DNA of 32,000 nt from Candidatus Saccharimonadota bacterium (GTDB lineage Bacteria > Patescibacteriota > Gracilibacteria > UBA1369 > 2-02-FULL-48-14). The position numbers and the translations under genes are program-made. Shown one piece after another: positions 1,850 to 32,000 of this stretch (its first letter is position 1; each line of letters starts with the position of its first letter). Below the pieces are notes generated by a model. That model did no database searches. It worked only from the letters and a program-made list of their open reading frames with translations, and was not told the origin of the DNA. The stretch is from assembly GCA_041661045.1 (NCBI GenBank), contig JBAZVE010000001.1, positions 1,110,001 through 1,142,000 on the forward strand. The letters are read 5' to 3'.

Positions 1850-2440
1850 TTATTCCTCTTCACCAATAAAGGAGGGAAGTTTTCTAGCTCTCCTTCGGTT
1901 AGTTCTTTGTTGGTCAAATGGTACAACTTGCCCTTTAAGTGCAGCAAGGTCTGTATGTATTTCCTCCATAGTTGGAAGGAAGGCTACTGTCCATCCGCTT
2001 TCTTCCGGAAATTGCTCCATAATTGCATGATAAAGTCTGAATGTAGAAATTGGGTCGTCAAGAATAATTGTGTAGCTTATATCGAAGCACTTATCCATAC
2101 GATCTAAATCGGTAGAAATCTCCAAATTTCGACCCAAAACTCCATTGATCAAAGCTAGGAGTTCGTCATGAAGTTTATCAATTGCTTCTTCAATCCTAGA
2201 TTCCATTTCGTCAAAAACCTCCTGATGCCTCGTATATTTTCTTGCCATTGCCTGTTCATCGTTAGCGCCCTTGAAGTCGGGGTTCTCATGTTTATCGTTC
2301 TGACCATCCTGTTCATCGTAGTGAAATGTCTCATCCGTACTGTAATGGTGCCTTTCCGCGTCATAAATCTCTTTGGTTTCTTTTTCGGTCAGACCGGTTC
2401 GTGCTCTCCTGTTCCAAAATGAAATCATTACATCATTCAT
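1850..2440 (-). CDS. Hypothetical protein, 196 aa, acidic/His-rich N-terminal half, C-terminus ...FIGEEE
   Basis: Track ORF with an ATG start. It is the first gene of a four-gene minus-strand string (2440 down to 1) and has a good promoter match upstream. No family recognised. Confidence 0.6.
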   Translation of the reverse strand: MNDVMISFWNRRARTGLTEKETKEIYDAERHHYSTDETFHYDEQDGQNDKHENPDFKGANDEQAMARKYTRHQEVFDEMESRIEEAIDKLHDELLALINGVLGRNLEISTDLDRMDKCFDISYTIILDDPISTFRLYHAIMEQFPEESGWTVAFLPTMEEIHTDLAALKGQVVPFDQQRTNRRRARKLPSFIGEEE

Positions 2441-14400: not shown

Positions 14401-17067
14401 ATGGCAAAATTAAAAGAAATTCTGGAAATGGTGTTGGGGTCGCTTAAAGTGGCTCTGGAAGCCGTTTCCGCGCATTGGGATTGGATTATCTTTTGGCTTG
14501 TTTTGGCCTTGCTCTTCAACCGGCTTTTGCCTTGGGCCCTTCGACAATTTTACGAGCATTGGACCGCTCGCAAACGGGTTTTCATTCAAGTGACCATGCC
14601 GCGCGAGGAGTCTCAAAAAGATAAAGAAAATGCCACGGAGAAGGATTTTAAGGAAAGGATTGGAATTATGGAGCAGCTTTACCGTGCCGTACATGAGATT
14701 CGTGAACTGGATTTGGGGAATCGGTTTATGGTTTGGATGTTTAAACGGGATACCGTTTCTTTTGAAATCCATGCCAGGCATAAGGACATCACTTTTTATA
14801 TTTCGATGCATCCTTATTATGCCGGGATTTTGGAGAAGCAGATTACGGCGTTTTACCCCAGCGCTTCCATTGATTTCATTCGACCTGAGGGTTTAAAGGC
14901 TAAGGATTTTAAGGGAAAAATCACGATGAAGGGCTATTATTTGTATCTTAAGAAGCTCAACTGGTATCCGCTTAAAACTTATAAAACGATTGAAAACGAC
15001 TCTTTGAATGATTTTACGAATGTGCTTTCCAAGCTGGACGAGAACGATCGAGCGGTGATTCAAATTATGATTCAGCCCCGTCACGAAAAATGGCAGAAGG
15101 AAGCCAGAGCCTTTGCTACGATGTTGTTTAAAAATAAAAAACCCGGGAATAGTGGTTTCTTTGGGAAAATAGTGGGAGCCTTGGGATGGATTTTTAGAGC
15201 CACTGTTTTTGGCTACGATTCTGCGGAAAAAAACAGCCATCCTCCCGGAAGCAGCTCCGGGGACTCCTATGTGCGTATGCTGCAAACGGATGAAGAGGTG
15301 GCCAAACGGATTGGAGAAAAATCCAATCAAGTGGGTTTTGATTCCATCGTTCGTATTATGGCGTCCTCCGATAAAGGAGAGGCGCAATGTGACGGTATTT
15401 TGAACGGGCTCTTTGTGGCCTTTAATGTGACCAAAGATGCGGCTTCAAACTGGTTCCAAGCTCGACGATTCTTGCCTTTTGACTCCATCAACAGTCCTAT
15501 TCTTAATGATTCTTTGGAGACTCGATCCTTTCAGTTTGGAGAAAAAATGTCCATTTTGACTCCCGAGGAACTGGCTTCCATTTTCCACTTTCCCAGCAGT
15601 CGTTACAATTACACGCCGGTTATTAAATGGCTTTCTTACAAGGTTCTCCCTGCACCCACGGATCTCCCAACCGAAGGTATTTTACTCGGTCACAATGTGT
15701 ACCGTGGGGTGAAACGAGAAGTCCATTTTAAAAGAAAAGACCGCACACGGCATCACTACATTATTGGGCAAACCGGTACAGGTAAATCTGCCTTCATCAG
15801 CTACATGGCCAGGCAAGATATTGCCAATGGAGATGGGGTTTGTGTGGTGGATCCTCATGGAGATTTGATTGAAGAAATCCTTCAATTTATTCCTAAAGAA
15901 CGGGCCAAGGATGTGATTATTTTTGATCCTTCGGATACGGAACGGCCGATGGGACTCAATATGCTTGAGGCCAAAACACCCGAGCAGCAAGACATGGCTT
16001 CCAGCCAGGCCACGGAAATCTTTATTAAAATATTTGGAGATGAAATTTTTGGACCCCGTATTCAGCACTATTTCCGAAACGCCTGTCTCACTTTGATGGA
16101 AGATCCGGATGAGGGCGCCACTTTGATTGATGTGCCGCGAATCTTTGTGGATGACGCGTTTATGCGCTACAAGGTTTCTAAGGTTAAAAACCCGGTGGTG
16201 AAATCGTTTTGGGAGCATGAATATGCCAGCACCGGAGACCGCGAACGACAGGAAATGATTCCTTACTTTTCTGCGAAGTTTGGTCCTTTTATTACGAACT
16301 CCATTATGCGTAATACGATTGGGCAGGCCAAGAGCGGATTCAATATTCGTGAGGTGATGGACAATCAAAAAATTCTTTTGGTGAACCTTTCTAAGGGTAA
16401 GCTTGGAGGGCTCAATACTCAGCTTTTGGGTCTGGTGCTTGTGGCACAAATTCAGCAGGCGGCCATGAGCCGCGTGGATTTGCCGGAGGAGCAACGAAAA
16501 GATTTTTACCTTTATGTGGATGAATTCCAAAACTTTGCCACCGATACTTTTTGTTCGATTCTTTCCGAAGCCCGAAAGTACCGTTTGTGTTTGATCATGG
16601 CGCATCAATACATTGGGCAGCTCACGGTTTCTAAATTTGGACAAACCAGCACGCAGATTCGTGACGCCGTATTCGGGAATGTGGGTACGCTCCAATCCTT
16701 TAAAATTGGTGCCGAGGATGCGGAATATTTGGCGAAAGAATATGCGCCGGTGCTCACCGAACAAGATGTGATTGGAATCGCCAATTACAAGGCGTACATG
16801 AAGCTCAACATCAACAGTGCCGCTTCACGACCTTTCTCGCTCGAAACCATTTGGGATCAGAGCAAGGCCAATCCAAAAGTGCGGGATATTGTGAAGCAAT
16901 ATTCTCGTATGAAGTACGGCCGCAAGAAGAGTTTTGTGGAGCAAGAAATTGGAGCGCGCATCGGAATTGATATCAATACTCTTGGCGATGAAGTTAAACC
17001 CGATTACACTGCGGAAGTGAATCCACCCGTTACGCCACCCACCACGCCATCCAATGGACCCGTTTAA
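14401..17067 (+). CDS. VirD4/TraG/TraD-like (FtsK-HerA superfamily) P-loop ATPase with N-terminal membrane anchor, 888 aa
   Basis: N-terminal TM segment WDWIIFWLVLALLF. Walker A is HHYIIGQTGTGKSAF. Walker B is FYLYVDEFQNFAT. ARKYRLCLIMAHQYIGQL resembles the TraD/TraG C-terminal motif. Confidence 0.85.
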   Translation: MAKLKEILEMVLGSLKVALEAVSAHWDWIIFWLVLALLFNRLLPWALRQFYEHWTARKRVFIQVTMPREESQKDKENATEKDFKERIGIMEQLYRAVHEIRELDLGNRFMVWMFKRDTVSFEIHARHKDITFYISMHPYYAGILEKQITAFYPSASIDFIRPEGLKAKDFKGKITMKGYYLYLKKLNWYPLKTYKTIENDSLNDFTNVLSKLDENDRAVIQIMIQPRHEKWQKEARAFATMLFKNKKPGNSGFFGKIVGALGWIFRATVFGYDSAEKNSHPPGSSSGDSYVRMLQTDEEVAKRIGEKSNQVGFDSIVRIMASSDKGEAQCDGILNGLFVAFNVTKDAASNWFQARRFLPFDSINSPILNDSLETRSFQFGEKMSILTPEELASIFHFPSSRYNYTPVIKWLSYKVLPAPTDLPTEGILLGHNVYRGVKREVHFKRKDRTRHHYIIGQTGTGKSAFISYMARQDIANGDGVCVVDPHGDLIEEILQFIPKERAKDVIIFDPSDTERPMGLNMLEAKTPEQQDMASSQATEIFIKIFGDEIFGPRIQHYFRNACLTLMEDPDEGATLIDVPRIFVDDAFMRYKVSKVKNPVVKSFWEHEYASTGDRERQEMIPYFSAKFGPFITNSIMRNTIGQAKSGFNIREVMDNQKILLVNLSKGKLGGLNTQLLGLVLVAQIQQAAMSRVDLPEEQRKDFYLYVDEFQNFATDTFCSILSEARKYRLCLIMAHQYIGQLTVSKFGQTSTQIRDAVFGNVGTLQSFKIGAEDAEYLAKEYAPVLTEQDVIGIANYKAYMKLNINSAASRPFSLETIWDQSKANPKVRDIVKQYSRMKYGRKKSFVEQEIGARIGIDINTLGDEVKPDYTAEVNPPVTPPTTPSNGPV

Positions 17068-18208
17068 AGATTATAATGTTTTGCACTTGGACCCCGAAGT
17101 TCCTCCTGTGGCACCACGGCCTCGTTTTCAAAGTCTTCCTATTTTTTTATCGATGGGAGTCGTCTTCATCAGCTTTATTGCGGTGACGGCGATTTTTAAA
17201 TCTTCTTTGCACGACCAGGAATCTCAAATGACTTCGATGATCGATGAGATCGGGGAGCTCAAGCAGGCTAATTTTTTGCTTTCACAGCAGGTGAGTTCTC
17301 AGGAGCAAATCTTGCAATCCATTGTGGTGGATTTTTCCAGTTTGGGGTCTGCTGCGGCATCCGGAGATGCAGGAAAGATGCAGGAGCTTTTCTCAAACAT
17401 TTTGTCGCGGGTTCCCACGCGCAATCAGAGTGTAGACTTGGCTGGGGCGGCTGCAAGCACGGTGGAAGATACTACTTTTGATGTTTTGGTTTTGGGTACC
17501 AATGGAGCTCACACGGACACAATTATTGTGGCCAGCATCAATGAAGACGATCGAAAAATTTCTCTCTTTTCCATCCCGCGGGATTTGTACATCAACGGGC
17601 GCCGCATCAACGAATACTACACTTACTATGGAGTGGAACAATTGGGCCGCATGGTCTCGGAAGTGACGGGCTTGGAGATGGATCATTTCGTTCAAGTGGA
17701 TTTGGAGGGCTTTGTGGATATTGTGGATATTTTGGGTGGCTTGGATGTCTTTGTTGCTGAGGCCATTTATGATGGTTTGTATCCCAACGGAAACGGAGGC
17801 TACAGCGCTTATTCTATTGAAGAAGGTCAGCATCACATGACGGGAGAGGAGGCGCTTCGGTATGCACGAAGTCGTAAATCTTCTTCCGATTTTGACCGTG
17901 CCGCCCGTCAGCAAGAAATTTTGGCGGCGCTGCGAACCAAGGTGGTTCAACTCGACAGTGTTATGGAAATGAAGGAGCTCACTTCCATTTTCCAGACGGC
18001 GATCGAATCCACCACCACGGATATGAATGTCTTGGATCTTGTGGGTTATTATTATGATTATCAGGACTTTGAACTCAACACCGGTTTGGTCTTGAGCAGC
18101 GGGAATTATTTGTACTCCCTGATTAATGAAAGTGGAGCTTATATTTTGCTCCCGGATGTCGCAGATTTTTCGGAAATTCATCAAGTGATTTCTGAACTCG
18201 TGCATTAG
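17054..18208 (+). CDS. LCP (LytR-CpsA-Psr) family cell-envelope phosphotransferase
   Basis: TM anchor LPIFLSMGVVFISFIAVTAIF. The LCP core reads FDVLVLGTNGAHTDTIIVASINEDDRKISLFSIPRDLYI..ALRYARSRKSSSDFDRAARQQEIL. The ATG at 17054 overlaps the upstream ATPase gene by 14 nt. Confidence 0.9.
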   Translation: MDPFKDYNVLHLDPEVPPVAPRPRFQSLPIFLSMGVVFISFIAVTAIFKSSLHDQESQMTSMIDEIGELKQANFLLSQQVSSQEQILQSIVVDFSSLGSAAASGDAGKMQELFSNILSRVPTRNQSVDLAGAAASTVEDTTFDVLVLGTNGAHTDTIIVASINEDDRKISLFSIPRDLYINGRRINEYYTYYGVEQLGRMVSEVTGLEMDHFVQVDLEGFVDIVDILGGLDVFVAEAIYDGLYPNGNGGYSAYSIEEGQHHMTGEEALRYARSRKSSSDFDRAARQQEILAALRTKVVQLDSVMEMKELTSIFQTAIESTTTDMNVLDLVGYYYDYQDFELNTGLVLSSGNYLYSLINESGAYILLPDVADFSEIHQVISELVH

Positions 18209-23723: not shown

Positions 23724-25919
23724 TCAGAAAGCTTTTTGAACTGCACGCTTTCGTATCACAACGGCGATGCTTGCACCCAAAAGGCTGATGAGGATGAGGC
23801 CGCTTTGTACGGGTCCTGTTTCCGGATTCTCTTTAATATTGCCTTCTTGTCCTGTTAGAAGAGGTTGAGTGTTTGTGTCATCGACGAGATCTTTATCATC
23901 CACCACTTTGGATAGAGAAGGAATGGCTTTCACCACCTCACTTCGTGGACCTTCAAGCCCCTCGGAATCCACGGCACTTACGGCAAAATAGTATTCTTCC
24001 CCTCCAGCCAGGTTCAAAATGGACCAATTGGTGGAGGCATCGTAGGTCTCGGAAATCGCATAAAGAGAGTTGCTATCCGGGCCGTAGTAGACTCGGTAAA
24101 AAGCGATGGGATTGCCACTTTCGGCGGCTTCCCAGCTGAGTAGAGCGGTTTCTATTGCACCGGTGACGCTGAGGCCGGTTACGGCTGCGATGCCGCTTTG
24201 ACCGGAGGGGGTTCCGCTTGTGCTTAGTGTTGAAAGGGTGAGTTCGTCGCGGTATTCCACCTCATTCCCAAGAACATCCATAAGAATGAGATCCACACTG
24301 AACTCGCCTTCGGTGCTTGGCAAAACCAAGTCGGCTTCATATTTACCGGCGGTGCTGCTTTCTTTGAGCTCAAAAATTTCCTCCTCAAGAATGATGGAAG
24401 CTTCTTCTAAGTTTTTTTCACTGAGCACCGTGACTTTAACAGTGTCTCCCGGCTTCAAATCTTCTTCGGGGTCGGTGCTGATGCTCACAATTTTGGGTGC
24501 CGTGGTGTCGATGGTGATTTTTTCACTGTCGGAAGTTTCAATCACTTCCAAAATTTCTTCTTCACCTTCTTCTCCTTCTCCCAATTCCACGATGTCCACA
24601 AACAAATCGTAGGTGCCATCTTCAATGTCTTCGACGGTAACGGTAAAGCTGTTGTCGAATTCAACCGGACTGCGAACCATTTCTTCTCCACTCAAGTACA
24701 CCACTGCGGTGAGCCCATATTCCGCCTCTCCTTGTACTTCTATGGAATCACTGGAGTAGGATCCGGCAGCGGGGCTAATGAGGGTAAAAGATCCTTCTCG
24801 CTCAAAATCGGTGCTTTCAAAATCTCCTTCATAGTCGGTTCCGCTGGCTTCGGTGGTCACCACCGTGGTTTGAGTCTCTCCTCTCAGACTGAATTCATCC
24901 AAATCCGTGACACTGAGGGCTTGATCCCCCGGAGTCACAAATTTTACAGCAAGGCTGAAGGAATGTGCGCCCTGATCTTCCGCCAGGAAGGTGTAATCCC
25001 CCGGAAGCGTTGCGCTGTCATCGGTGGAGGAAAATCGAATGGTTCCGGTGTAGTCTTGCACGGTGTCCCCATTTCCGTCTATGGCGGAAACCGTTACCGT
25101 CTCCGCATCACCCACGGTGGTGCTTGCGCCCAATCCTTCGATTAAAAATGCATCCACTTCACCGCTTTCAGCCGCAAGAAAGACACTGTCTTCGTGTCCT
25201 CCGACGGCCGTATAGTCACTTATTTCGCTTCCTGAGAAGGCCACTTTCTCGTCTACAAAAATAGTCTTGTTGATGCTGGAGTCGAAGAGAGTGAACTCAT
25301 AAATTCCCTGTGCGGTGCTTGAGACAAAGAATTTCATTTCTCCTCTTTCATCACTCACAAAGTTTGGGCTGTAAGCCGTAACGCCGGCTTGTTTTGGAAT
25401 CACTTTGAGCACATGCCCATCAATAGCGTTTCCATAGTCATCTTTTAGGCTTACGGTCATCTCCAAAGATTCTCCCAAGGAAGCGGACTGCTTGTTCCAC
25501 GCCACGCTTGTTTTTGTATCTGAAACGGTGGAGGGGAAGACTTCAAAATCCACGGCGGTTCCATAAGTTTCTCCGGAGAGTGCTTCTCGTGCGGCAACTT
25601 GATAGATTCCTGCTCTTCGAAGGTGGTACTCTGAAATCATCAGGGTGGCGGCTCCGCTTGCATCTGCGGTTTCTTCCAAAAGGAGTACGGTTCCATCCGG
25701 TTTCTTGAGGGCGAGTTCCATGGTTTCATAGCCGGTTCCTTTCAAATGGATCTCTTGAGAAAAACCCGCCAGGGTGTCTGTTATTGATGAAATAGTGATG
25801 TCGCTGTTCCCTTTTGAACCCGCGTTGGTCAAAAATGGACTCGAAAGAAGCGTCAGCACCAGTGCCGCGACCAAAAGAAAGCGTGTTTTCTGTAATCCTT
25901 TTAAGAACAGGGTAGCCAT
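23724..25919 (-). CDS. Large secreted surface protein (Ig-like repeats, FN3 domain) with C-terminal sortase-type sorting signal
   Basis: The ATG at 25919 gives MATLFLKGLQKTRFLLVAALVLTLLSSPFLTNAGS, a signal peptide; the track start at 26015 adds 32 implausible residues. It is beta-rich and repetitive, with an acidic EGEEGEEE linker. An FN3-like segment reads VTGLSVTGAIETALLSWEAAESGNPIAFYRVYYG..YYFAVSAVDSEGLEG. The C-terminus is NPETG (23814-23828), a hydrophobic helix, then RKRAVQKAF. Confidence 0.85.
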   Translation of the reverse strand: MATLFLKGLQKTRFLLVAALVLTLLSSPFLTNAGSKGNSDITISSITDTLAGFSQEIHLKGTGYETMELALKKPDGTVLLLEETADASGAATLMISEYHLRRAGIYQVAAREALSGETYGTAVDFEVFPSTVSDTKTSVAWNKQSASLGESLEMTVSLKDDYGNAIDGHVLKVIPKQAGVTAYSPNFVSDERGEMKFFVSSTAQGIYEFTLFDSSINKTIFVDEKVAFSGSEISDYTAVGGHEDSVFLAAESGEVDAFLIEGLGASTTVGDAETVTVSAIDGNGDTVQDYTGTIRFSSTDDSATLPGDYTFLAEDQGAHSFSLAVKFVTPGDQALSVTDLDEFSLRGETQTTVVTTEASGTDYEGDFESTDFEREGSFTLISPAAGSYSSDSIEVQGEAEYGLTAVVYLSGEEMVRSPVEFDNSFTVTVEDIEDGTYDLFVDIVELGEGEEGEEEILEVIETSDSEKITIDTTAPKIVSISTDPEEDLKPGDTVKVTVLSEKNLEEASIILEEEIFELKESSTAGKYEADLVLPSTEGEFSVDLILMDVLGNEVEYRDELTLSTLSTSGTPSGQSGIAAVTGLSVTGAIETALLSWEAAESGNPIAFYRVYYGPDSNSLYAISETYDASTNWSILNLAGGEEYYFAVSAVDSEGLEGPRSEVVKAIPSLSKVVDDKDLVDDTNTQPLLTGQEGNIKENPETGPVQSGLILISLLGASIAVVIRKRAVQKAF

Positions 25920-25949
25920 ACCGTGGTTTGTTTTTATTTTTATCTTGTC

Positions 25950-25958
25950 ATTATAGCA
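25950..25958 (-). promoter_or_regulatory. Extended -10 candidate (TGCTATAAT) for the surface-protein gene
   Basis: The minus strand reads TGCTATAAT 30 nt upstream of the ATG at 25919. Confidence 0.45.
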
Positions 25959-25988
25959 GATTTTGGGGTGGAGAACAAGATGCCCGTC

Positions 25989-25997
25989 TGCTAGACT
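25989..25997 (+). promoter_or_regulatory. Extended -10 candidate (TGCTAGACT) for the PKD-7TM / ligase-peptidase operon
   Basis: TGnTAGACT lies 22 nt upstream of the ATG at 26020. Confidence 0.35.
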
Positions 25998-26019
25998 GAC
26001 AGCATCCCAATCCACCTTT

Positions 26020-27519
26020 ATGTTTAAAGTTTTTTTTCTTGCCCTTTTCTCCGCTTTTTTGTGGGGGAATTCTGTGCTCGCCGTGGAGCTTCCGGAGGAG
26101 GCTGCCGCTCAAGTTGAATCTGAAATTTATGCCGAAATTGATTCGGTGGACAGTATTGGGGTGGATCGCAACATTATTTTTAGCGGGGCTTCTTCCGAGT
26201 CTATCTCGGATGGGGCTTTGCGTTTTGAATGGCACTTTGGGGATGGAAATCGGCAAGAGGGAAGTGAAGTGGTGCATTCTTATGCTCAAGCCGGTGAGTA
26301 CGCGGTAACGCTTACGGTTCGAGATCCTGAGGGGCGAGAAGCTTCGGTTTCTAAAACGATTTTTGCTTTTAGTAAGTCTTTTGTTTTGGTGAGCACGGTG
26401 ACCGATGAAGACGAAAAACTATTGGGCTTGGTGACCACTGCTCGAGAACAAGGTATTTATATCGATCTGCTCAGTGCCAGTACGCACTCCGGATTTTTGG
26501 AAGAAGAGGAACTTCGTCGCCAACTTTTAGAGAAAATCTCTTCTTTGGAAAATACGGAAGACTTATTGATTTACACCTCCGGGACTTCAGGACTCACGGT
26601 ACTCTCCCAGCTCCAGGAAAGTTTGGGGGATGAGGCACCTTTTAAGGGCAAGAATGTTATTTTTATCTCGGAGCACAGTCTTGGTGCCATGGAAAACATT
26701 GCGAGGGGGGTCTACAGCACCATTCAATCTCAACAAATTGTGCTCACACGGCCAGAGGCCTTGTGGGTTCTTTTGGAAGCGGAAAATGTGCTTGAGTTGA
26801 CGCAAATTTTGGAGGAACGGGGCATTGAATACACAGTGGTGGATAAACACCTGGAAATTCGCCCGTGGAATTTCCTATCGGTTTTGGTGAACAATATGTT
26901 GAGCCACGGAGTTCCCACGAACACCATCCTTTTGGTTTTGATGCTGCCCATTATTGCCACGGTGATTGCTTTTATGAAGCAAGTGGTGGGGCTCAATACT
27001 CTTGGAATTTATACGCCGTCTATTCTTTCTCTTTCCTTCATTGCCCTCAATTTATGGTACGGCCTTTTGGTTTTTGTGATTTTGTTTTTGGTGGCCAGTT
27101 TGGCTCGTTCTCTTTTGCATCGGTATCGCCTTTTGTATATTCCCAGAATGGCGATTATTCTCTCCATCTCCAGTTTTGCCATTCTTTTGGTGCTTTTCCT
27201 TGGATCTTTGTTCGATCAAAAAATAGATCAACTGGCCATTTTCCCCATTCTTATTATGGCGACCATGGTGGAAAAATTTGTCACTATTCAAAGTGATAAG
27301 GGTATGAAAAATGCCATGCGCATCGGGGGTGAAGTTCTGCTTGTGGCCATGCTTTGTTCTTTGGTGGCGCAGTGGAATATCTTGGAAATCTGGGTTTTGG
27401 GTCATCCCGAATTGGTGCTGCTTTGTCTGCCTTTCAACCTTTTCTTGGCGCGATGGGCGGGTCTTCGTTTGGTTGAGTACATTCGTTTTAGGGAAATTAT
27501 TCATCACATTGAAGAATAA
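26020..27519 (+). CDS. Signal peptide + PKD domain + 7TM module of the type usually fused to an inactive transglutaminase
   Basis: The ATG at 26020 gives MFKVFFLALFSAFLWGNSVLA. The PKD signature is FEWHFGDGNRQEGSEVVHSYAQAGEYAVTLTVRD. About 190 aa are unassigned. Seven hydrophobic helices run from about residue 320, with VVGLNTLGIYTPSILSLSF, FPILIMATMVEKF and the terminal ARWAGLRLVEYIRFREIIHHIEE. These match my memory of the 7TM_transglut family. Confidence 0.85.
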   Translation: MFKVFFLALFSAFLWGNSVLAVELPEEAAAQVESEIYAEIDSVDSIGVDRNIIFSGASSESISDGALRFEWHFGDGNRQEGSEVVHSYAQAGEYAVTLTVRDPEGREASVSKTIFAFSKSFVLVSTVTDEDEKLLGLVTTAREQGIYIDLLSASTHSGFLEEEELRRQLLEKISSLENTEDLLIYTSGTSGLTVLSQLQESLGDEAPFKGKNVIFISEHSLGAMENIARGVYSTIQSQQIVLTRPEALWVLLEAENVLELTQILEERGIEYTVVDKHLEIRPWNFLSVLVNNMLSHGVPTNTILLVLMLPIIATVIAFMKQVVGLNTLGIYTPSILSLSFIALNLWYGLLVFVILFLVASLARSLLHRYRLLYIPRMAIILSISSFAILLVLFLGSLFDQKIDQLAIFPILIMATMVEKFVTIQSDKGMKNAMRIGGEVLLVAMLCSLVAQWNILEIWVLGHPELVLLCLPFNLFLARWAGLRLVEYIRFREIIHHIEE

Positions 27520-29864
27520 TGCTTTTCAAAAATCATGGGATCTTGGGCATGAATGCCCGGAACCTCCTCTATGTCCGTCCATTCAACAAAAAAAAGGCCA
27601 TTCGTTTGGCGGATGATAAGTTGAAGACCAAGCATTTTCTTTCTGCCAGAGGCATCCCCGTTCCAAGACTTTACGGAGTGATTCGATCGGTATCGGAGCT
27701 TGAGGAATTTAATTTCTCCACGCTCCCCAAAAGTTTTGTGCTCAAGCCCAATCTTGGGTTTGGTGGGGAAGGGATTATTCCTATTGTGGACAACAAGGGC
27801 TCTTCCTTTGTGAAGAGCAGTGGAAGCTTGATAGAGGAAGATGAACTGCGGGAGCACATTAGTGATATTTTAGAGGGACGGTTCAGTATTTCTGAGCTTC
27901 AGGATACTGCTTTTTTTGAGCAACTTATTATTTGTGATCCTCGGCTCGCGCAATTTTGTTATAAAGGAATTCCGGATATTCGGATTTTGGTTCACAATTT
28001 GGTCCCCGTGATGGCGATGCTTCGCTTGCCCACGCGGGAGTCTGACGGGAAGGCTAATTTGCACCAAGGTGCGGTTGGGGTGGGCGTTGATATTGCCAAG
28101 GGAACCGCTACGCACACGGTATATAAAGGAAAAATTGTGGATGAAATTCCGGGTGCGGGGTCTATTCGTGGCTTTGTTATTCCGTATTGGGATGAGCTTT
28201 TGCTTATTGCCTCCCGCATTCAGTTGGCCACCAATTTGGGGTACTGTGCCGTGGATCTTTCTTTGGACCGGAATGCCGGACCGATGCTGCTTGAAATCAA
28301 TGCTCACGCCGGCTTGGGTCTTCAAATTGCCAACTTGGCTCCTTTGCGTAAACGCCTGGAAAAAGTGCATGGCATTCAAGTGAGCAGTCCTGAAAAAGGA
28401 GTGCGTATCGCTCAAGAAATTTTTGGACACAAGGTGACAAAGGAGGTGAAAGAGAGCCGAGAAGTGATTGGGAATGAAGAGGAGATTAAAATCATTGCTC
28501 CGCAGGAAGTGCGCCATGTTTGGGCTTCCATCAATCCTCTTTTGGAAAGCAGTGTAGTGGATGAGGAGCTTGCAAAAGACTTGGGGCTTGTGGAAAAAAC
28601 TGAACTGGGGCAGTTGAAAATGAAGATCTCTTTGGGTAAAAAACGCATCCAAACGCTGGCGTATACGGACGATTTTTCCAAGAAAAATTATGGAATGCTC
28701 ATTGGACGGCGAGATCTCAGCGGGTTTTTGATTGACCCCATGAAAGGAAAAACCAAACTGCTTCAACGGCCCCTCTTGCCTGAGCTGAGTTCCACTCCTT
28801 TTGCTCAAGTGGACCTTGAATTGGCCGAGATGGATTCTAAACTTAAGCTTTTGTCTCAACTCAAGCCCACCAATCTCAAAGAAGAGAAAGAAAAATTCTT
28901 AAAGGATACTTCTTATGAGCCGCAGTTTGAGTACCGTGACCTCTCTTTTGATGCGCTTGCATTCAAGCTGCAGCTCAAGAAAATTGAGCTCACTTGTGCC
29001 GGCGGGGAACTTGGAGAACTCTTTTTGAGAAAGGCTGAAGAGCTGCACAAGAAAATATTGCTTTTGGAGGCTCGTGGGGGAGATTTGCTCACGGAACGGA
29101 GTATCGATTTGTATGGCAAGCCCACGCCAGATCTTTTGGATAGAGCCAGGGAGAAACTGAAGTTCAAGCCTGAGCAATTTGAGGAGCCCAAAAAATGGTT
29201 TTCAGTTGCGGAGGCCAGTATTGAATTTGAAAGGGTATTCCGTGAATACGGGCTTTCACATTGGCGGATCAAGGTGAATCGGCACATGGTGAGCGCGTGT
29301 TCTGCAGGGAAGGAATCCACACTTTTCATACGGGAGGGTGCACTTTTTTCTGAGGAAAATTTGAGGATGCTTTTGGCTCATGAAATTGAGACCCATGTGC
29401 TCACGGCGGAGAATGGAAAGGCGCAGAATTACCGTTTGTTCAACAGGGGTTTTGGCAACTTTTTGGAGACTCAGGAAGGTTTGGCCATTTGGAATCAAGA
29501 GCAGGTGTGTTTGCATGAAACTGAAAAGAAATATCGCAGCGCTACACTCATTTTTATTGTGGACTATGCCCTTAAACATTCTTTTGCAGAAACTTATGAT
29601 TATTGTCTCAAGCTTGGTATGAGTGAAGACCGCGCCTTGCAAACTTCTCTTAAAGTGAAACGGGGGCTCGGGGATAGTTCCCAGCCGGGAGCTTTTACAA
29701 AAGATTTATTGTATTTTTCCGGTTACCTGCAAGTTGAAGATTTTGTTAAAAATGGAGGAGATCTTAAGGATCTTTATTATGGAAAATACAATCTCAGAGA
29801 TCTGGCGCTTATTAAAAAAATTCCCGGTCTCAAGGCGCCTCGAATCTTGCCCCACTTTCTTTAG
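27519..29864 (+). CDS. Fusion protein: RimK-related ATP-grasp (alpha-L-glutamate ligase-like) + DUF1704/MATCAP-type HExxxH metallopeptidase (QEGLA motif)
   Basis: The ATG overlaps the upstream TAA (TAATG at 27517-27521). The N-terminal ~300 aa reads GILGMNARNLLYV..LADDKLKTKHFL..GIPVP..GIPDIRILVHNLVPVMAMLRLPTRESDGKANLHQGAVGVGVDI..MLLEINAHAGLGLQIAN. The C-terminal ~350 aa reads LKPTNLKEEKEKFL..YEPQFEYR.., with HEIETH at 29379-29396 and QEGLA at 29472-29486. It is a single uninterrupted 781-codon ORF. Confidence 0.9.
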   Translation: MLFKNHGILGMNARNLLYVRPFNKKKAIRLADDKLKTKHFLSARGIPVPRLYGVIRSVSELEEFNFSTLPKSFVLKPNLGFGGEGIIPIVDNKGSSFVKSSGSLIEEDELREHISDILEGRFSISELQDTAFFEQLIICDPRLAQFCYKGIPDIRILVHNLVPVMAMLRLPTRESDGKANLHQGAVGVGVDIAKGTATHTVYKGKIVDEIPGAGSIRGFVIPYWDELLLIASRIQLATNLGYCAVDLSLDRNAGPMLLEINAHAGLGLQIANLAPLRKRLEKVHGIQVSSPEKGVRIAQEIFGHKVTKEVKESREVIGNEEEIKIIAPQEVRHVWASINPLLESSVVDEELAKDLGLVEKTELGQLKMKISLGKKRIQTLAYTDDFSKKNYGMLIGRRDLSGFLIDPMKGKTKLLQRPLLPELSSTPFAQVDLELAEMDSKLKLLSQLKPTNLKEEKEKFLKDTSYEPQFEYRDLSFDALAFKLQLKKIELTCAGGELGELFLRKAEELHKKILLLEARGGDLLTERSIDLYGKPTPDLLDRAREKLKFKPEQFEEPKKWFSVAEASIEFERVFREYGLSHWRIKVNRHMVSACSAGKESTLFIREGALFSEENLRMLLAHEIETHVLTAENGKAQNYRLFNRGFGNFLETQEGLAIWNQEQVCLHETEKKYRSATLIFIVDYALKHSFAETYDYCLKLGMSEDRALQTSLKVKRGLGDSSQPGAFTKDLLYFSGYLQVEDFVKNGGDLKDLYYGKYNLRDLALIKKIPGLKAPRILPHFL

Positions 29865-29870
29865 GAGCTC

Positions 29871-31016
29871 TTAAGCGCCGGCCGCCCATTCGGTGCTCAG
29901 GTCTCCCGCTTCGCTCTTTTGGCTGTACTTCATTACAATGAGCGTCATGTCATCGAGTTGCGCTTGGCCTTCCATAAATCGTCCCACATCAATAGCAATT
30001 TTTTCAAAAAGATCTTCGGTGCTGATTTCTTTATTCACCTGTTCTTTGAGGAATTTCTGTAAACGGCTCAAAGTGTACTGCTCTCCATTTATGTTTTGAG
30101 CCTCGATGATTCCATCTGAATAGAGCACCACAAAGTCATCGCTTTCCAGTATGATTTTCTTTTCTTGAATAAATGGACTGATGTCCGGGAGCATGCCCAC
30201 GGCAAGTCCTCCGGCACGAATAGCGTCCACCTCTCCGGTGCTTGTTTTAATGTGGATCAAATGCTCGTGCCCGGCTCCAACCCAGTGCAAGGCATGTTCT
30301 TGAGGCACCCATTCCAGGAGCACCATGGTCATGAACATGCTGGGCTTTAGATGGGGCTTTAAATATTGATTGAGGCGAATCAGTGTAGACTTGAGTGTGC
30401 TCTCCAGCTCAATGAAAGTTTCTAAAAGCACATCCACCATCACCATCACAATTCCCGCTGGGATTCCGTGGCCGGTGGAATCTCCAATATAAAGAAGGTT
30501 TCGATCTTCTTTGAGGAAAAAATCGAAAGTGTCGCCGCCAATTTCAGAGGCGGGCCTGGTCTTTGCGGTGATTTTAAGTCCGGGAAACTGTGGGGCGGTT
30601 TTTGGAATCAACATTCGTTGTATGTCTTGTGCCGAACTGAGTTCTTTTTGAATACGCACATGCGTTTTGATGTCTTGGGAAATGTTCTCAAGGTTGCGCG
30701 TCACCTCATTAAAGAAATGAGCTAAAACACCAAGTTCGTTCGTTTTTGAGGTGTATATTTTTCGGTAAGGCTTCCCTGTGAGCAGCGCCTTCATCTCATG
30801 AATGATTTTTGTGAGAGGTCTTTGGATTTTGATGACAAAAATTGCTAAAAAACTCAATACTAAGAAGAGGAGCGCCGCGGGGGCCGCGAACTGCGTGGCG
30901 AGATGGATTGTTCTTTCCAGGAGGAAGAAGAGGCCGAATGCTAAAATTCCGCTTATCAAGCTCGGCAGGAGTATAGACATGAAAATGGAGCGGCGGAGTT
31001 GAGACATCTCTGGCAT
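29871..31016 (-). CDS. Membrane-bound HAMP + PP2C/SpoIIE-family serine phosphatase (RsbU-like)
   Basis: Two N-terminal TM helices. A HAMP-like linker reads IQRPLTKIIHEMKALLTGKPY..ELGVLAHFFNEVTRNL. The PP2C core reads SAQDIQRMLIP..ASEIGGDTFDFF..LYIGDSTGHGIPAGIVM..VVLYSDGIIEA..DDMTLIVM. Confidence 0.9.
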   Translation of the reverse strand: MPEMSQLRRSIFMSILLPSLISGILAFGLFFLLERTIHLATQFAAPAALLFLVLSFLAIFVIKIQRPLTKIIHEMKALLTGKPYRKIYTSKTNELGVLAHFFNEVTRNLENISQDIKTHVRIQKELSSAQDIQRMLIPKTAPQFPGLKITAKTRPASEIGGDTFDFFLKEDRNLLYIGDSTGHGIPAGIVMVMVDVLLETFIELESTLKSTLIRLNQYLKPHLKPSMFMTMVLLEWVPQEHALHWVGAGHEHLIHIKTSTGEVDAIRAGGLAVGMLPDISPFIQEKKIILESDDFVVLYSDGIIEAQNINGEQYTLSRLQKFLKEQVNKEISTEDLFEKIAIDVGRFMEGQAQLDDMTLIVMKYSQKSEAGDLSTEWAAGA

Positions 31017-31040: not shown

Positions 31041-32000
31041 CTACTGCTTCATTTGTCTGCTGGTCAGCACCTCTTTGATCTTATGTACCTCGTGGTGGGC
31101 GTTTATTTTTTGGTAGAGCTCGTGGAGTAAATGTAAAGACTCCTCCGGTAGGGAAGTCCAGTTGAGGTCCTTTTCTTTTGAAAGTATTTGGTTGATTTTT
31201 TCACTGATCCTCAAGTCCAATGCGTTTTGGAGTAGGGCTCTGAACTGTTTTGGAAATTTAGCCAAAAGACTGAAGGATTTATGAAACCATTCGTGGCTCG
31301 GGTCACTCAAGGCTTCCACGAGATGGGGGATGGTGCTTTCTTCTTCCATTTGTCCAAGCGCCAAAAGCACAGCTTTTTTAATTTCCGGAGAACCATGATT
31401 GAGATGTTTTTTAAGCTCTTCTTTAAAACTCTTTTCTTTTACAAAGCCACAGGCTTCGATGCCTTTTTTTAAGACCTCTTCTTTTGGACTTTCCAACATT
31501 TGCTTGAGGTGATGTCGGAGTTCGTTCCCGAGTGTTTTGAATTGCCATAAGGCGATGATGGAAGCGGCTTTTACCCCTGGATCTCTGCTGCTGAGCTGTC
31601 CTTCCAGGTAAAACTTAAGGTTGGGGTCGTGGAAAAGACTGAGCATTCTTATGAAACTTGCCTTTTGTCTTCCCTCTTTTTTAACGCGTTCCACAAGGAA
31701 TTCCGTTAAGGCGTCTGGGGCCAAGTCATGAAAAACCAGTACCAATTCTTCTCGAATGGCCTCCACTTCTTCCTCATTGAGTCGATTTTTAAGAGCTTCG
31801 ATGACGCGGTATCTTGTAAAAGATTGGTCAATGAGGTGTTCTTTGAGTTTGTGGAAATGGCTTAGGGCCTCAGCGGCGGCGAGTCGCAATCGTTCGTTCT
31901 TGTGATCCAGCATCTCCAAAATACTGGCGATGGAATCAGGGTCTTCTTGAAGCCCGAGTGTGTTCAAAATATCTTCTTTAATGATTTCCGGTTCGCTGCT
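31041..32000 (-). CDS. HEAT/ARM-like helical repeat protein; partial, 5' end off the window
   Basis: The track start at 31967 is a TTG. The frame stays open to position 32000 (checked, no stop), so the gene probably begins outside the window. It contains repeated amphipathic helix pairs such as ERLRLAAAEALSHF, DPGVKAASIIALWQF and SPEIKKAVLLALGQM. Confidence 0.7.
   Translation of the reverse strand, partial: SSEPEIIKEDILNTLGLQEDPDSIASILEMLDHKNERLRLAAAEALSHFHKLKEHLIDQSFTRYRVIEALKNRLNEEEVEAIREELVLVFHDLAPDALTEFLVERVKKEGRQKASFIRMLSLFHDPNLKFYLEGQLSSRDPGVKAASIIALWQFKTLGNELRHHLKQMLESPKEEVLKKGIEACGFVKEKSFKEELKKHLNHGSPEIKKAVLLALGQMEEESTIPHLVEALSDPSHEWFHKSFSLLAKFPKQFRALLQNALDLRISEKINQILSKEKDLNWTSLPEESLHLLHELYQKINAHHEVHKIKEVLTSRQMKQ

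Follow-up and report, generated by a model that had tools for sequence, protein, structure and literature searches.

The window considered here, a 32,000-nucleotide stretch of a metagenome-assembled genome of a Candidatus Saccharimonadota bacterium (contig JBAZVE010000001.1), carries a plus-strand operon of two genes (26020..29864; Table 1) in which a membrane protein ending in Glu-Glu, encoded by gene 1, is followed by a single-chain enzyme, encoded by gene 2, that combines an ATP-grasp ligase, a degenerate retropepsin and a MATCAP/DUF1704 metallocarboxypeptidase. The operon can securely be regarded as a candidate-phyla variant of the Rlo/Rim type of module, in which a ligase and a peptidase are tied to a 7TM protein. 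More tentatively, and with what we judge to be slightly less than an even chance of being right, we propose that the ligase domain extends the cytoplasmic Glu-Glu tail of the gene 1 protein, most likely with glutamate, and that the fused MATCAP domain trims it back, such that the length of the tail would be a regulated state. A sequence-only reading of the same DNA had described a PKD-7TM membrane protein coupled to a ligase-peptidase fusion and had taken the two for a system that writes and erases C-terminal tails; what it observed is confirmed, and its interpretation is supported in part.

The fused enzyme and its membrane partner

The AlphaFold2 model of gene 2 (predicted local distance difference test score, pLDDT, 86.8) resolves three domains, residues 17-304, 313-410 and 428-781, joined by disordered linkers. 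The first matches ATPgrasp_ST (PF14397) over residues 14-284, with E 8.4e-67 and 225.7 bits against a cut-off of 31.4, and covers profile positions 2-277 of 278. On the TIGR02291 model (rimK_rel_E_lig) it scores 288.8 bits, under the equivalog cut-off of 314.2, and since the Pfam cut-off is passed and this one is not reached, we treat the ligase as a member of the family and do not call it an equivalog. The peptidase domain likewise stays under the equivalog cut-off of the QEGLA model TIGR02421 (185.2 bits against 338.65), as would be expected of domains that sit in a new architecture. When the ligase domain (residues 17-304) was compared with the PDB by Foldseek, the best folds were those of RimK (5zct, 5zk6 and 7qys, including the RimK-RpsF complex), followed by ArgX/LysX (3vpb, 5k2m, 3vpd), cyanophycin synthetase and PsnB; no PDB relative of the domain was found by sequence at E up to 0.001, such that it is placed by fold only, and the RimK Pfam match is marginal at 22.2 bits. 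The tubulin tyrosine ligase family TTL (PF03133) gave no match in gene 2 at E up to 0.01, and a related unfused ligase reached only E 0.025, below the cut-off.

The third domain matches the MATCAP family (PF08014) over residues 461-767 with E 1.3e-50 and 172.9 bits against a cut-off of 27, and Foldseek puts human MATCAP (7z5g) first among its PDB matches (E 1.4e-12, target TM-score 0.67 over 346 columns). In sequence alignment with that enzyme, HEIETH (29379-29396) pairs with HEIGTH, and TQEGLA, whose QEGLA lies at 29472-29486, pairs with TEEGLA; the HExxxH and EEG metal motifs are those that define the TMCP/MATCAP enzymes (PMC10499314). Residues H621, E622, H626, E653 and G654 of this domain are invariant in 73 gene 2 homologues, as are K76, D246, E259 and N261 of the ligase domain, which by analogy would bind nucleotide and Mg. 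As these catalytic-type residues are invariant in both domains, both enzymes are apparently active. The motifs and the two family assignments of the sequence-only reading thus all stand, by hidden Markov model (HMM), fold and aligned catalytic motifs; of the folds that it had proposed to look for, those of RimK and MATCAP were recovered. The ligase being RimK-like, the analogy with the tubulin tyrosine cycle is valid for the peptidase only.

That reading had divided gene 2 into two parts and overlooked the degenerate retropepsin between them. Residues 8-409 of gene 2 align end to end, at 39% identity by BLASTP, with a 486-residue protein of a related locus that consists of ATPgrasp_ST and a RimB-like retropepsin, and residues 313-410 adopt a beta-rich fold in the AlphaFold2 model. 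Where the relative has KIDTGADDS, gene 2 has SINPLLESS and is shorter by about 48 residues, and the catalytic D-T/S-G has become N-P-L, within SINPLL at 28527-28544. The isolated domain of gene 2 matched neither PF05618 nor any other Pfam family, and no PDB sequence; the homologous active domain matches two solved structures, 9g59 and 9g58, each entered as a 'putative ATP-dependent zinc protease domain-containing protein', and the identification in gene 2 is therefore transitive, running through the 486-residue relative. Among the loci whose context was read (see below), D-T/S-G is kept in 58/58 unfused ligases and lost in 7/7 fused ones, and it is still present at the aligned site in about 19 of 119 fused database homologues. 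As it is kept in all of these unfused enzymes and in some fused ones, the addition of MATCAP came before the decay of the retropepsin, and the order that can be read from the sequences is ligase plus retropepsin, then added MATCAP, then decay of the retropepsin in most lines. The remnant inside gene 2 shows that MATCAP joined an older protease and later took over most of its place.

It might be objected that the fusion is an artefact of assembly, frameshift or gene calling and that its halves are really separate genes, as the window belongs to a metagenome-assembled genome and related lineages do have unfused ligases and separate MATCAP genes. The best 120 homologues of gene 2, however, all carry the ligase and MATCAP domains, 119 of them at full length (>700 residues; about 757-813), and these full-length proteins are 49-100% identical to gene 2 and were assembled independently of one another (NCBI, JGI, ENA and Logan). 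The reading frame of gene 2 is uninterrupted, and its model shows a continuous, confident three-domain architecture. The fused homologues are labelled Gracilibacteria, Peregrinibacteria, Peribacteria or Patescibacteria; a protein identical to gene 2 is found on a 1.3-Mb 'Candidatus Gracilibacteria' contig, and at least 36 pairs of a fused enzyme and a Glu-Glu-tailed partner lie on contigs of identical size. The objection is thereby refuted in practice: the fusion is genuine and widespread within one lineage.

Turning to the membrane partner, gene 1 encodes an N-out, C-in protein with seven transmembrane helices, by the positive-inside rule, hydropathy and an AlphaFold2 model (pLDDT 91.1; predicted template modelling score, pTM, 0.81) that comprises a PKD domain, an alpha/beta domain, the seven helices and a terminal helix. 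Pfam places PKD_4 at residues 39-112 (E 2.7e-16), and the PKD domain superimposes on that of ColG (4tn9) with a target TM-score of 0.89 and 40% identity; beyond it, Foldseek found no solved relative of the model in the PDB. The 7TM_transglut module (PF14402) spans residues 304-493 with E 1.7e-29 and 103.5 bits against a cut-off of 25. Resemblance to RloB-type proteins is confined to this membrane region, with 30% identity to the Legionella protein over residues 302-490 only and 72.5 bits on the NCBIfam RloB model (NF052267, cut-off 900), all of it at profile positions 312-506. The Legionella protein scores 152.6 bits on Transglut_i_TM (PF14400), and gene 1 gave no match to it. The PKD module, the seven helices and the presence of a PKD ectodomain where an inactive transglutaminase is usual are thus borne out, and the stretch set down earlier as about 190 unassigned residues does lack a family but is well structured: residues 119-275 form an alpha/beta domain with a beta-alpha-beta pattern and pLDDT >90, for which there was no Pfam family and no convincing PDB match by Foldseek and which is not a transglutaminase. 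It occupies the position of the inactive transglutaminase of RloB-type proteins, and a local HMM built from it (MID) matches again in PKD-bearing relatives. The best 120 homologues of gene 1 are about 500 residues long, and nearly all combine PKD with 7TM.

The protein ends in ...RFREIIHHIEE (...GLRLVEYIRFREIIHHIEE), with the terminal Glu-Glu codons at 27511-27516, and the stretch that we consider as candidate acceptor peptide is ...LVEYIRFREIIHHIEE. In a 67-sequence alignment of homologues (mean column identity 46%), the cytoplasmic helix motif GLRxxEYxRFRE is conserved, with G481, L482, R483, E486, R489 and F490 invariant, and the tail that follows the invariant RFR has a constant length of 8-10 residues. 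By the positive-inside rule, applied to the loop charges, this tail is cytoplasmic and so on the same side as the enzyme. The sequence-only reading had counted a lack of conservation of the terminal Glu-Glu as a refutation of its idea, and this test does not refute it: -EE or -EEE closes the tails of 118 of the best 120 homologues, the most distant of which are only 34% identical, and the run of glutamates varies from two to five; in the wider family, counted with one representative per 50% cluster, -EE ends only 58 of 146. A conserved C-terminal Glu-Glu marks a candidate acceptor, not a modification. The other acidic C-termini of the window that had been suggested as candidates yielded nothing: the 196-residue protein ending ...FIGEEE (1850..2440, minus strand) has no homologue except itself among 5.8 billion proteins and may be an orphan gene or not a gene, and the 119-residue protein ending VETPVE matched no family.

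The Glu-Glu tail and the fused enzyme across loci

The context of 99 loci was read, drawn from look-ups and from a metagenome scan with local HMMs built from our own alignments. A scan of contigs with gene 2 alone gave 7 loci; for the pattern search with the transmembrane region, an alignment of 22 sequences was too diverse and one of 6 sequences worked. When unique 7TM proteins with a complete ligase open reading frame downstream are counted, those with a Glu-Glu tail are followed by a fused enzyme in 8/8 cases and those with any other tail by an unfused ligase-retropepsin in 52/52, six of the latter having a separate MATCAP gene nearby. The association (Fisher p = 3.9e-10, a value that overstates independence) comes down to one or two evolutionary transitions with long retention thereafter; in a rough neighbour-joining tree of the ligase domain the fused lines fall into two basal groups and all of the unfused candidate-phyla lines into one clade.

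Two simpler correlates of the tail were considered and rejected. That the Glu-Glu tail tracks the decay of the retropepsin does not hold, as fused enzymes that keep D-T/S-G (loci L100 and L101) also have Glu-Glu-tailed partners, from which it appears that the tail follows the MATCAP fusion and not the decay. Nor does the presence of MATCAP alone predict the tail, since the six unfused systems in which MATCAP is a gene of its own (L009, L050 and L002-L005 among them) have other endings.

The systems without Glu-Glu tails show features of their own. Among 77 such 7TM proteins, 49 have no PKD match, and these are mostly short (about 220 residues, 7TM only; L040, L045, L058, L088 and others of L020-L099); at several of the loci a separate PKD-containing open reading frame lies about 1-3 kb upstream on the same strand. 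The tails of these proteins carry their own conserved motifs, ...NVELxxKK and ...NIEIPKKRRPGKI. In the unfused subclass ending ...NVE-LxxKK, the conserved Glu shares an alignment column with the first of the terminal glutamates in the Glu-Glu class, and it could be speculated that the tail is a propeptide from which a retropepsin cut might expose that Glu; the idea is speculation only, because many unfused tails contain no acidic residue. At L002, L003 and L008 (for example L003, 4943..8566), three more ATP-grasp genes directly follow the unfused ligase. These are RimK-, GSH-S- and cyanophycin-synthetase-like, occur in Saccharibacteria, Dojkabacteria and some PKD-bearing lineages, and suggest a stepwise peptide synthesis. 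At L050 (about 9.2-10.5 kb), the separate MATCAP gene after the unfused ligase is split into two open reading frames of 269 and 183 residues, which may reflect a frameshift or a decaying gene.

Two further loci bear on the family at large. On the Halobacterium sp. DL1 plasmid CP007061.1 (L019, 4164..5918), an unannotated open reading frame of 584 residues joins the C-terminus of a 7TM_transglut module to the N-terminus of ATPgrasp_ST, a Rosetta-stone fusion in an archaeon that adjoins transposases; it supports physical contact of the two proteins at the cytoplasmic face. The record NZ_AP026896.1 (L017), listed in PLSDB as Aeromonas caviae 'plasmid pKAM479_3', is 4.94 Mb long with 18 annotated features and is evidently a chromosome; it contains a canonical RloABC-type locus, unannotated there.

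Known ligase-peptidase systems and the candidate substrate

The gene-neighbourhood link on which this module rests was reportedly first drawn in 2009, in computational work by Iyer and colleagues. Nothing relevant came up when the literature was searched for bacterial ATP-grasp enzymes in combination with DUF1704 or MATCAP, or for the accessions of the TIGRFAM and Pfam models. The statement of the sequence-only reading that no biochemical function is known is out of date, in view of the genetics of RloABC, the polyglutamate-cleaving retropepsins and the action of RimK and RimB on RpsF (PMC12239564). The RloA proteases of Pseudomonas aeruginosa are secreted relatives of RimB with polyglutamate as a cleavable substrate; cells that lack the three of them die in low osmolarity unless rloB or rloC is deleted as well, the physiological substrate is in the authors' view probably a polyglutamylated protein or free polyglutamate, and systems of the Rlo type matter for osmotic tolerance, antibiotic resistance and biofilm in that organism (PMC12239564).

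As in RloABC, the operon sets an ATPgrasp_ST ligase (RloC) beside a 7TM_transglut protein (RloB) and adds a peptidase for acidic peptides. The canonical loci of Legionella (L018: Zn_protease, Transglut_i_TM + 7TM_transglut, ATPgrasp_ST) and Aeromonas have three separate genes, whereas the window has a decayed retropepsin inside the cytoplasmic enzyme together with a fused MATCAP, and no separate RloA-type secreted retropepsin gene (D-T-G) was found in the operon or its flanks. The membrane protein of the window also differs in having PKD and alpha/beta domains instead of the inactive transglutaminase and in ending with Glu-Glu, which the Legionella and Aeromonas homologues do not.

A second relative is the RimK-RimB-RpsF system, in which RimK puts glutamates on the -EE end of ribosomal protein S6 (RpsF) and also makes free poly-alpha-glutamate, and RimB removes them, ligase and protease being opposed in the cytoplasm (PMC12239564). 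Here too a RimK-like ATP-grasp enzyme is paired with a retropepsin-type protease, and RpsF has a genome-encoded C-terminal Glu-Glu, as gene 1 does. The ligase of gene 2, however, is of the ATPgrasp_ST/TIGR02291 clade rather than RimK proper, a membrane protein takes the place of S6 as candidate acceptor, the working peptidase is a metallocarboxypeptidase, and a single chain holds every catalytic part.

Aligned motifs and fold identify the peptidase domain as a true homologue of human MATCAP. MATCAP/TMCP1-2 enzymes take C-terminal Tyr and Glu off tubulin tails and shorten polyglutamate, trimming acidic tails to -EE ends in opposition to the ATP-grasp ligases TTL/TTLL; carboxypeptidase activity on acidic C-terminal tails is established for the human and Tetrahymena enzymes only (PMC10499314). 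As MATCAP and the RimB/RloA retropepsins all act on polyglutamate, the old and the new peptidase of the lineage share a substrate class. In the tubulin cycle, unlike here, the substrate is tubulin, the ligase is of the TTL family, the end of alpha-tubulin is encoded with a terminal Tyr rather than as -EE, and writer and eraser are separate proteins. Finally, LysX/ArgX also join an amino acid to the C-terminal glutamate of a partner encoded nearby, but LysW is a small soluble biosynthetic carrier, the ligation is to the gamma-carboxyl, and there is no fused peptidase and no membrane partner.

With these systems as a guide, we infer a writer/eraser cycle along the following lines. The gene 2 enzyme would dock on the cytoplasmic face of the 7TM protein, where its ATP-grasp domain would activate the terminal Glu by forming an acyl phosphate at the alpha-carboxylate and then attach one amino acid or several; by the example of RimK on S6, L-glutamate is the most likely. 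The MATCAP domain would take the added residues off singly, back to the encoded -EE, and two opposing activities of the same chain would between them fix the length of the tail, in a balance that could be shifted by the PKD/alpha-beta ectodomain or by the supply of ATP and glutamate. The dead retropepsin domain would be retained as a module for dimerisation or for binding acidic peptides. In GlnE, AceK, SpoT/Rel and HprK/P, opposed activities on one chain usually amount to a reciprocally regulated switch and not to a futile cycle; their folds and chemistries are unrelated to those of gene 2, and the analogy is functional only. The proposal gains support from the nearest solved ligases (RimK/RpsF, ArgX/LysX/LysW), all of which act on a protein C-terminal glutamate, and from the tail itself, in that its Glu-Glu is conserved, its length is fixed, it is placed in the cytoplasm, and it occurs only with fused enzymes.

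Several observations weigh against this. The pTM of the gene 2 model is 0.50, such that the geometry between its domains is uncertain, and the association of tail and fusion rests, as noted, on one or two transitions. The tail cannot be the general acceptor of the whole family: the RloB-type proteins of Legionella and Aeromonas have no acidic tail, in many unfused candidate-phyla systems the tail finishes with basic or hydrophobic residues, L009, L050 and L002-L005 lack Glu-Glu despite their separate MATCAP gene, and the haloarchaeal fusion leaves no free tail at all. The proteases of Pseudomonas aeruginosa are secreted (PMC12239564), which points to a product that leaves the cytoplasm. A conserved tail could, moreover, be a docking or pseudo-substrate element and not an acceptor.

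These points lead to the main rival, which we consider possible if on the doubtful side, namely that the ligase makes a free oligo- or poly-amino acid (for example poly-alpha-glutamate) or extends a small molecule, with the 7TM protein binding or exporting the product and the peptidase domains limiting or recycling it. The tail would then be a primer mimic, a tether or an autoinhibitory pseudo-substrate that holds the enzyme at the membrane. In its favour, RimK does make free polymer, and the rescue of RloA loss by deletion of rloB or rloC implies that RloB and RloC give rise to a harmful product, the breakdown of which normally takes place outside the cytoplasm (PMC12239564). That proteobacteria, most unfused candidate-phyla systems and the haloarchaeal fusion combine 7TM protein and ligase but have no acidic tail is in keeping with it, as are the unfused loci with three more ATP-grasp genes, which suggest multi-step peptide synthesis. 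What a free product fails to explain is why the last two residues, and not a surface patch, should be kept in 118 of 120 homologues on a tail of fixed length, and why Glu-Glu should appear exactly where an exopeptidase has been fused to the ligase.

It is also conceivable, if improbable, that the acceptor to which the ATP-grasp enzyme joins an amino acid is a precursor of the envelope, linked to a sugar or a lipid, with the 7TM protein as platform or flippase, the peptidase as editor and the tail as incidental. The Pfam name of the ligase family, 'sugar-transfer associated ATP-grasp', and its description would fit such a role, as would the osmotic sensitivity, altered morphology and ampicillin sensitivity seen in Pseudomonas aeruginosa (PMC12239564), the overproduction of vesicles by a Shewanella mutant of the inactive transglutaminase-7TM gene (PMC12096838), and envelope genes in the vicinity (FemAB in L016, glycosyltransferases in L009, LytR and a Mur ligase in the window). 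The closest folds, however, are ligases of protein or peptide C-termini and not sugar-modifying enzymes, both linked peptidase types act on acidic peptide tails (PMC10499314, PMC12239564), no glycosyltransferase partner was found in the operon of the window, and the link between Glu-Glu and the fusion is left unexplained.

The locus, its neighbours and what the operon may mean

The coordinates of the operon and the TAATG overlap, both given in the sequence-only reading, are as described when the open reading frames are reread. The TAA of gene 1 (27517-27519) and the ATG of gene 2 (27519-27521) have one base in common, from which translational coupling of the two genes is inferred; in relatives, one gene always directly neighbours the other on the same strand, with small gaps or overlaps. 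The NCBI record of an identical protein starts ten codons later, at Met11 (771 residues, skipping 27519..27548 of the window), but homologues conserve the ten residues that it omits (G7, L9 and G10 at >=90%), which makes the overlapping ATG the better start. The cleavage site of the gene 1 signal peptide is putative. Upstream, the divergent minus-strand fn3 gene has its likely ATG at 25919-25917, and a scan of the operon for promoter and terminator consensus sequences did no better than on shuffled sequence, such that no promoter is shown.

Table 1. Features of the operon and of the region upstream, in window coordinates
Feature	Residues	Position	Strand	Basis
Presumed promoter region between divergent fn3 surface-protein gene and gene 1		25920..26019	.	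sequence read
Gene 1, 499-residue membrane protein (signal peptide, PKD, alpha/beta domain, 7TM_transglut, Glu-Glu tail)		26020..27519	+	ATG open reading frame, Pfam, AlphaFold2 model
Signal peptide (putative), MFKVFFLALFSAFLWGNSVLAV	1-22	26020..26085	+	hydrophobic N-terminal segment
PKD domain, extracytoplasmic	39-117	26134..26370	+	Pfam PKD_4, Foldseek
Alpha/beta domain, extracytoplasmic	119-275	26374..26844	+	AlphaFold2 model
Seven transmembrane helices, 7TM_transglut module	300-478	26917..27453	+	Pfam, hydropathy, positive-inside loops, AlphaFold2
Cytoplasmic juxtamembrane helix GLRLVEYIRFRE and tail IIHHIEE		27454..27516	+	alignment of homologues
TAATG stop/start overlap of genes 1 and 2		27517..27521	+	sequence read
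Gene 2, 781-residue cytoplasmic three-domain enzyme		27519..29864	+	single open reading frame, Pfam, NCBIfam, AlphaFold2
ATP-grasp ligase domain, ATPgrasp_ST / alpha-L-glutamate ligase-like	1-304	27519..28430	+	Pfam, TIGR02291, fold
Degenerate RimB-like retropepsin domain	313-410	28455..28748	+	BLASTP against ATPgrasp_ST-RimB-like protein
MATCAP/DUF1704 metallocarboxypeptidase domain	428-781	28800..29861	+	Pfam, Foldseek, motif alignment

The neighbours of the operon are unrelated to it. The divergent gene upstream (23724..26015, minus strand) encodes a Big/fn3 surface protein, the convergent genes downstream (29871..31016 and 31041..31967, both minus strand) encode a PP2C phosphatase of the SpoIIE type and a protein with HEAT repeats, and the flanks also contain housekeeping genes. 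At about 50% identity, L100 and L101 retain the gene order around the operon, with an additional STAS protein downstream. The operon may be linked functionally to a partner-switching module. Elsewhere in the window, an 888-residue homologue of VirD4/TraG-like coupling proteins (14401..17067, plus strand; TrwB_AAD_bind, TraG-D_C) overlaps at its end the start of a LytR_cpsA_psr gene (17054..18208, plus strand), an unexpected pairing for a small genome.

A protease swap is documented here, in which a retropepsin decayed after MATCAP had been added, and such a swap speaks for one and the same role of both types of peptidase. In our sample, a ligase and an exopeptidase on one chain are paired without exception with a partner that ends in Glu-Glu, and the gene 1 tail is a concrete, peptide-testable substrate candidate for two enzyme families that have been without one. 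It is tempting to see in the operon a bacterial counterpart of the tubulin tail code, in which the -EE tail of a receptor-like protein would be reversibly lengthened and shortened and its length would be a signalling state set from outside through the PKD/alpha-beta ectodomain, although we think it rather unlikely that the whole of this picture is correct. If it were, bacterial DUF1704/MATCAP proteins and 7TM-linked ATPgrasp_ST ligases would have in the tail their first substrate, and it would suggest that the recognition of acidic -EE tails by MATCAP predates tubulin.

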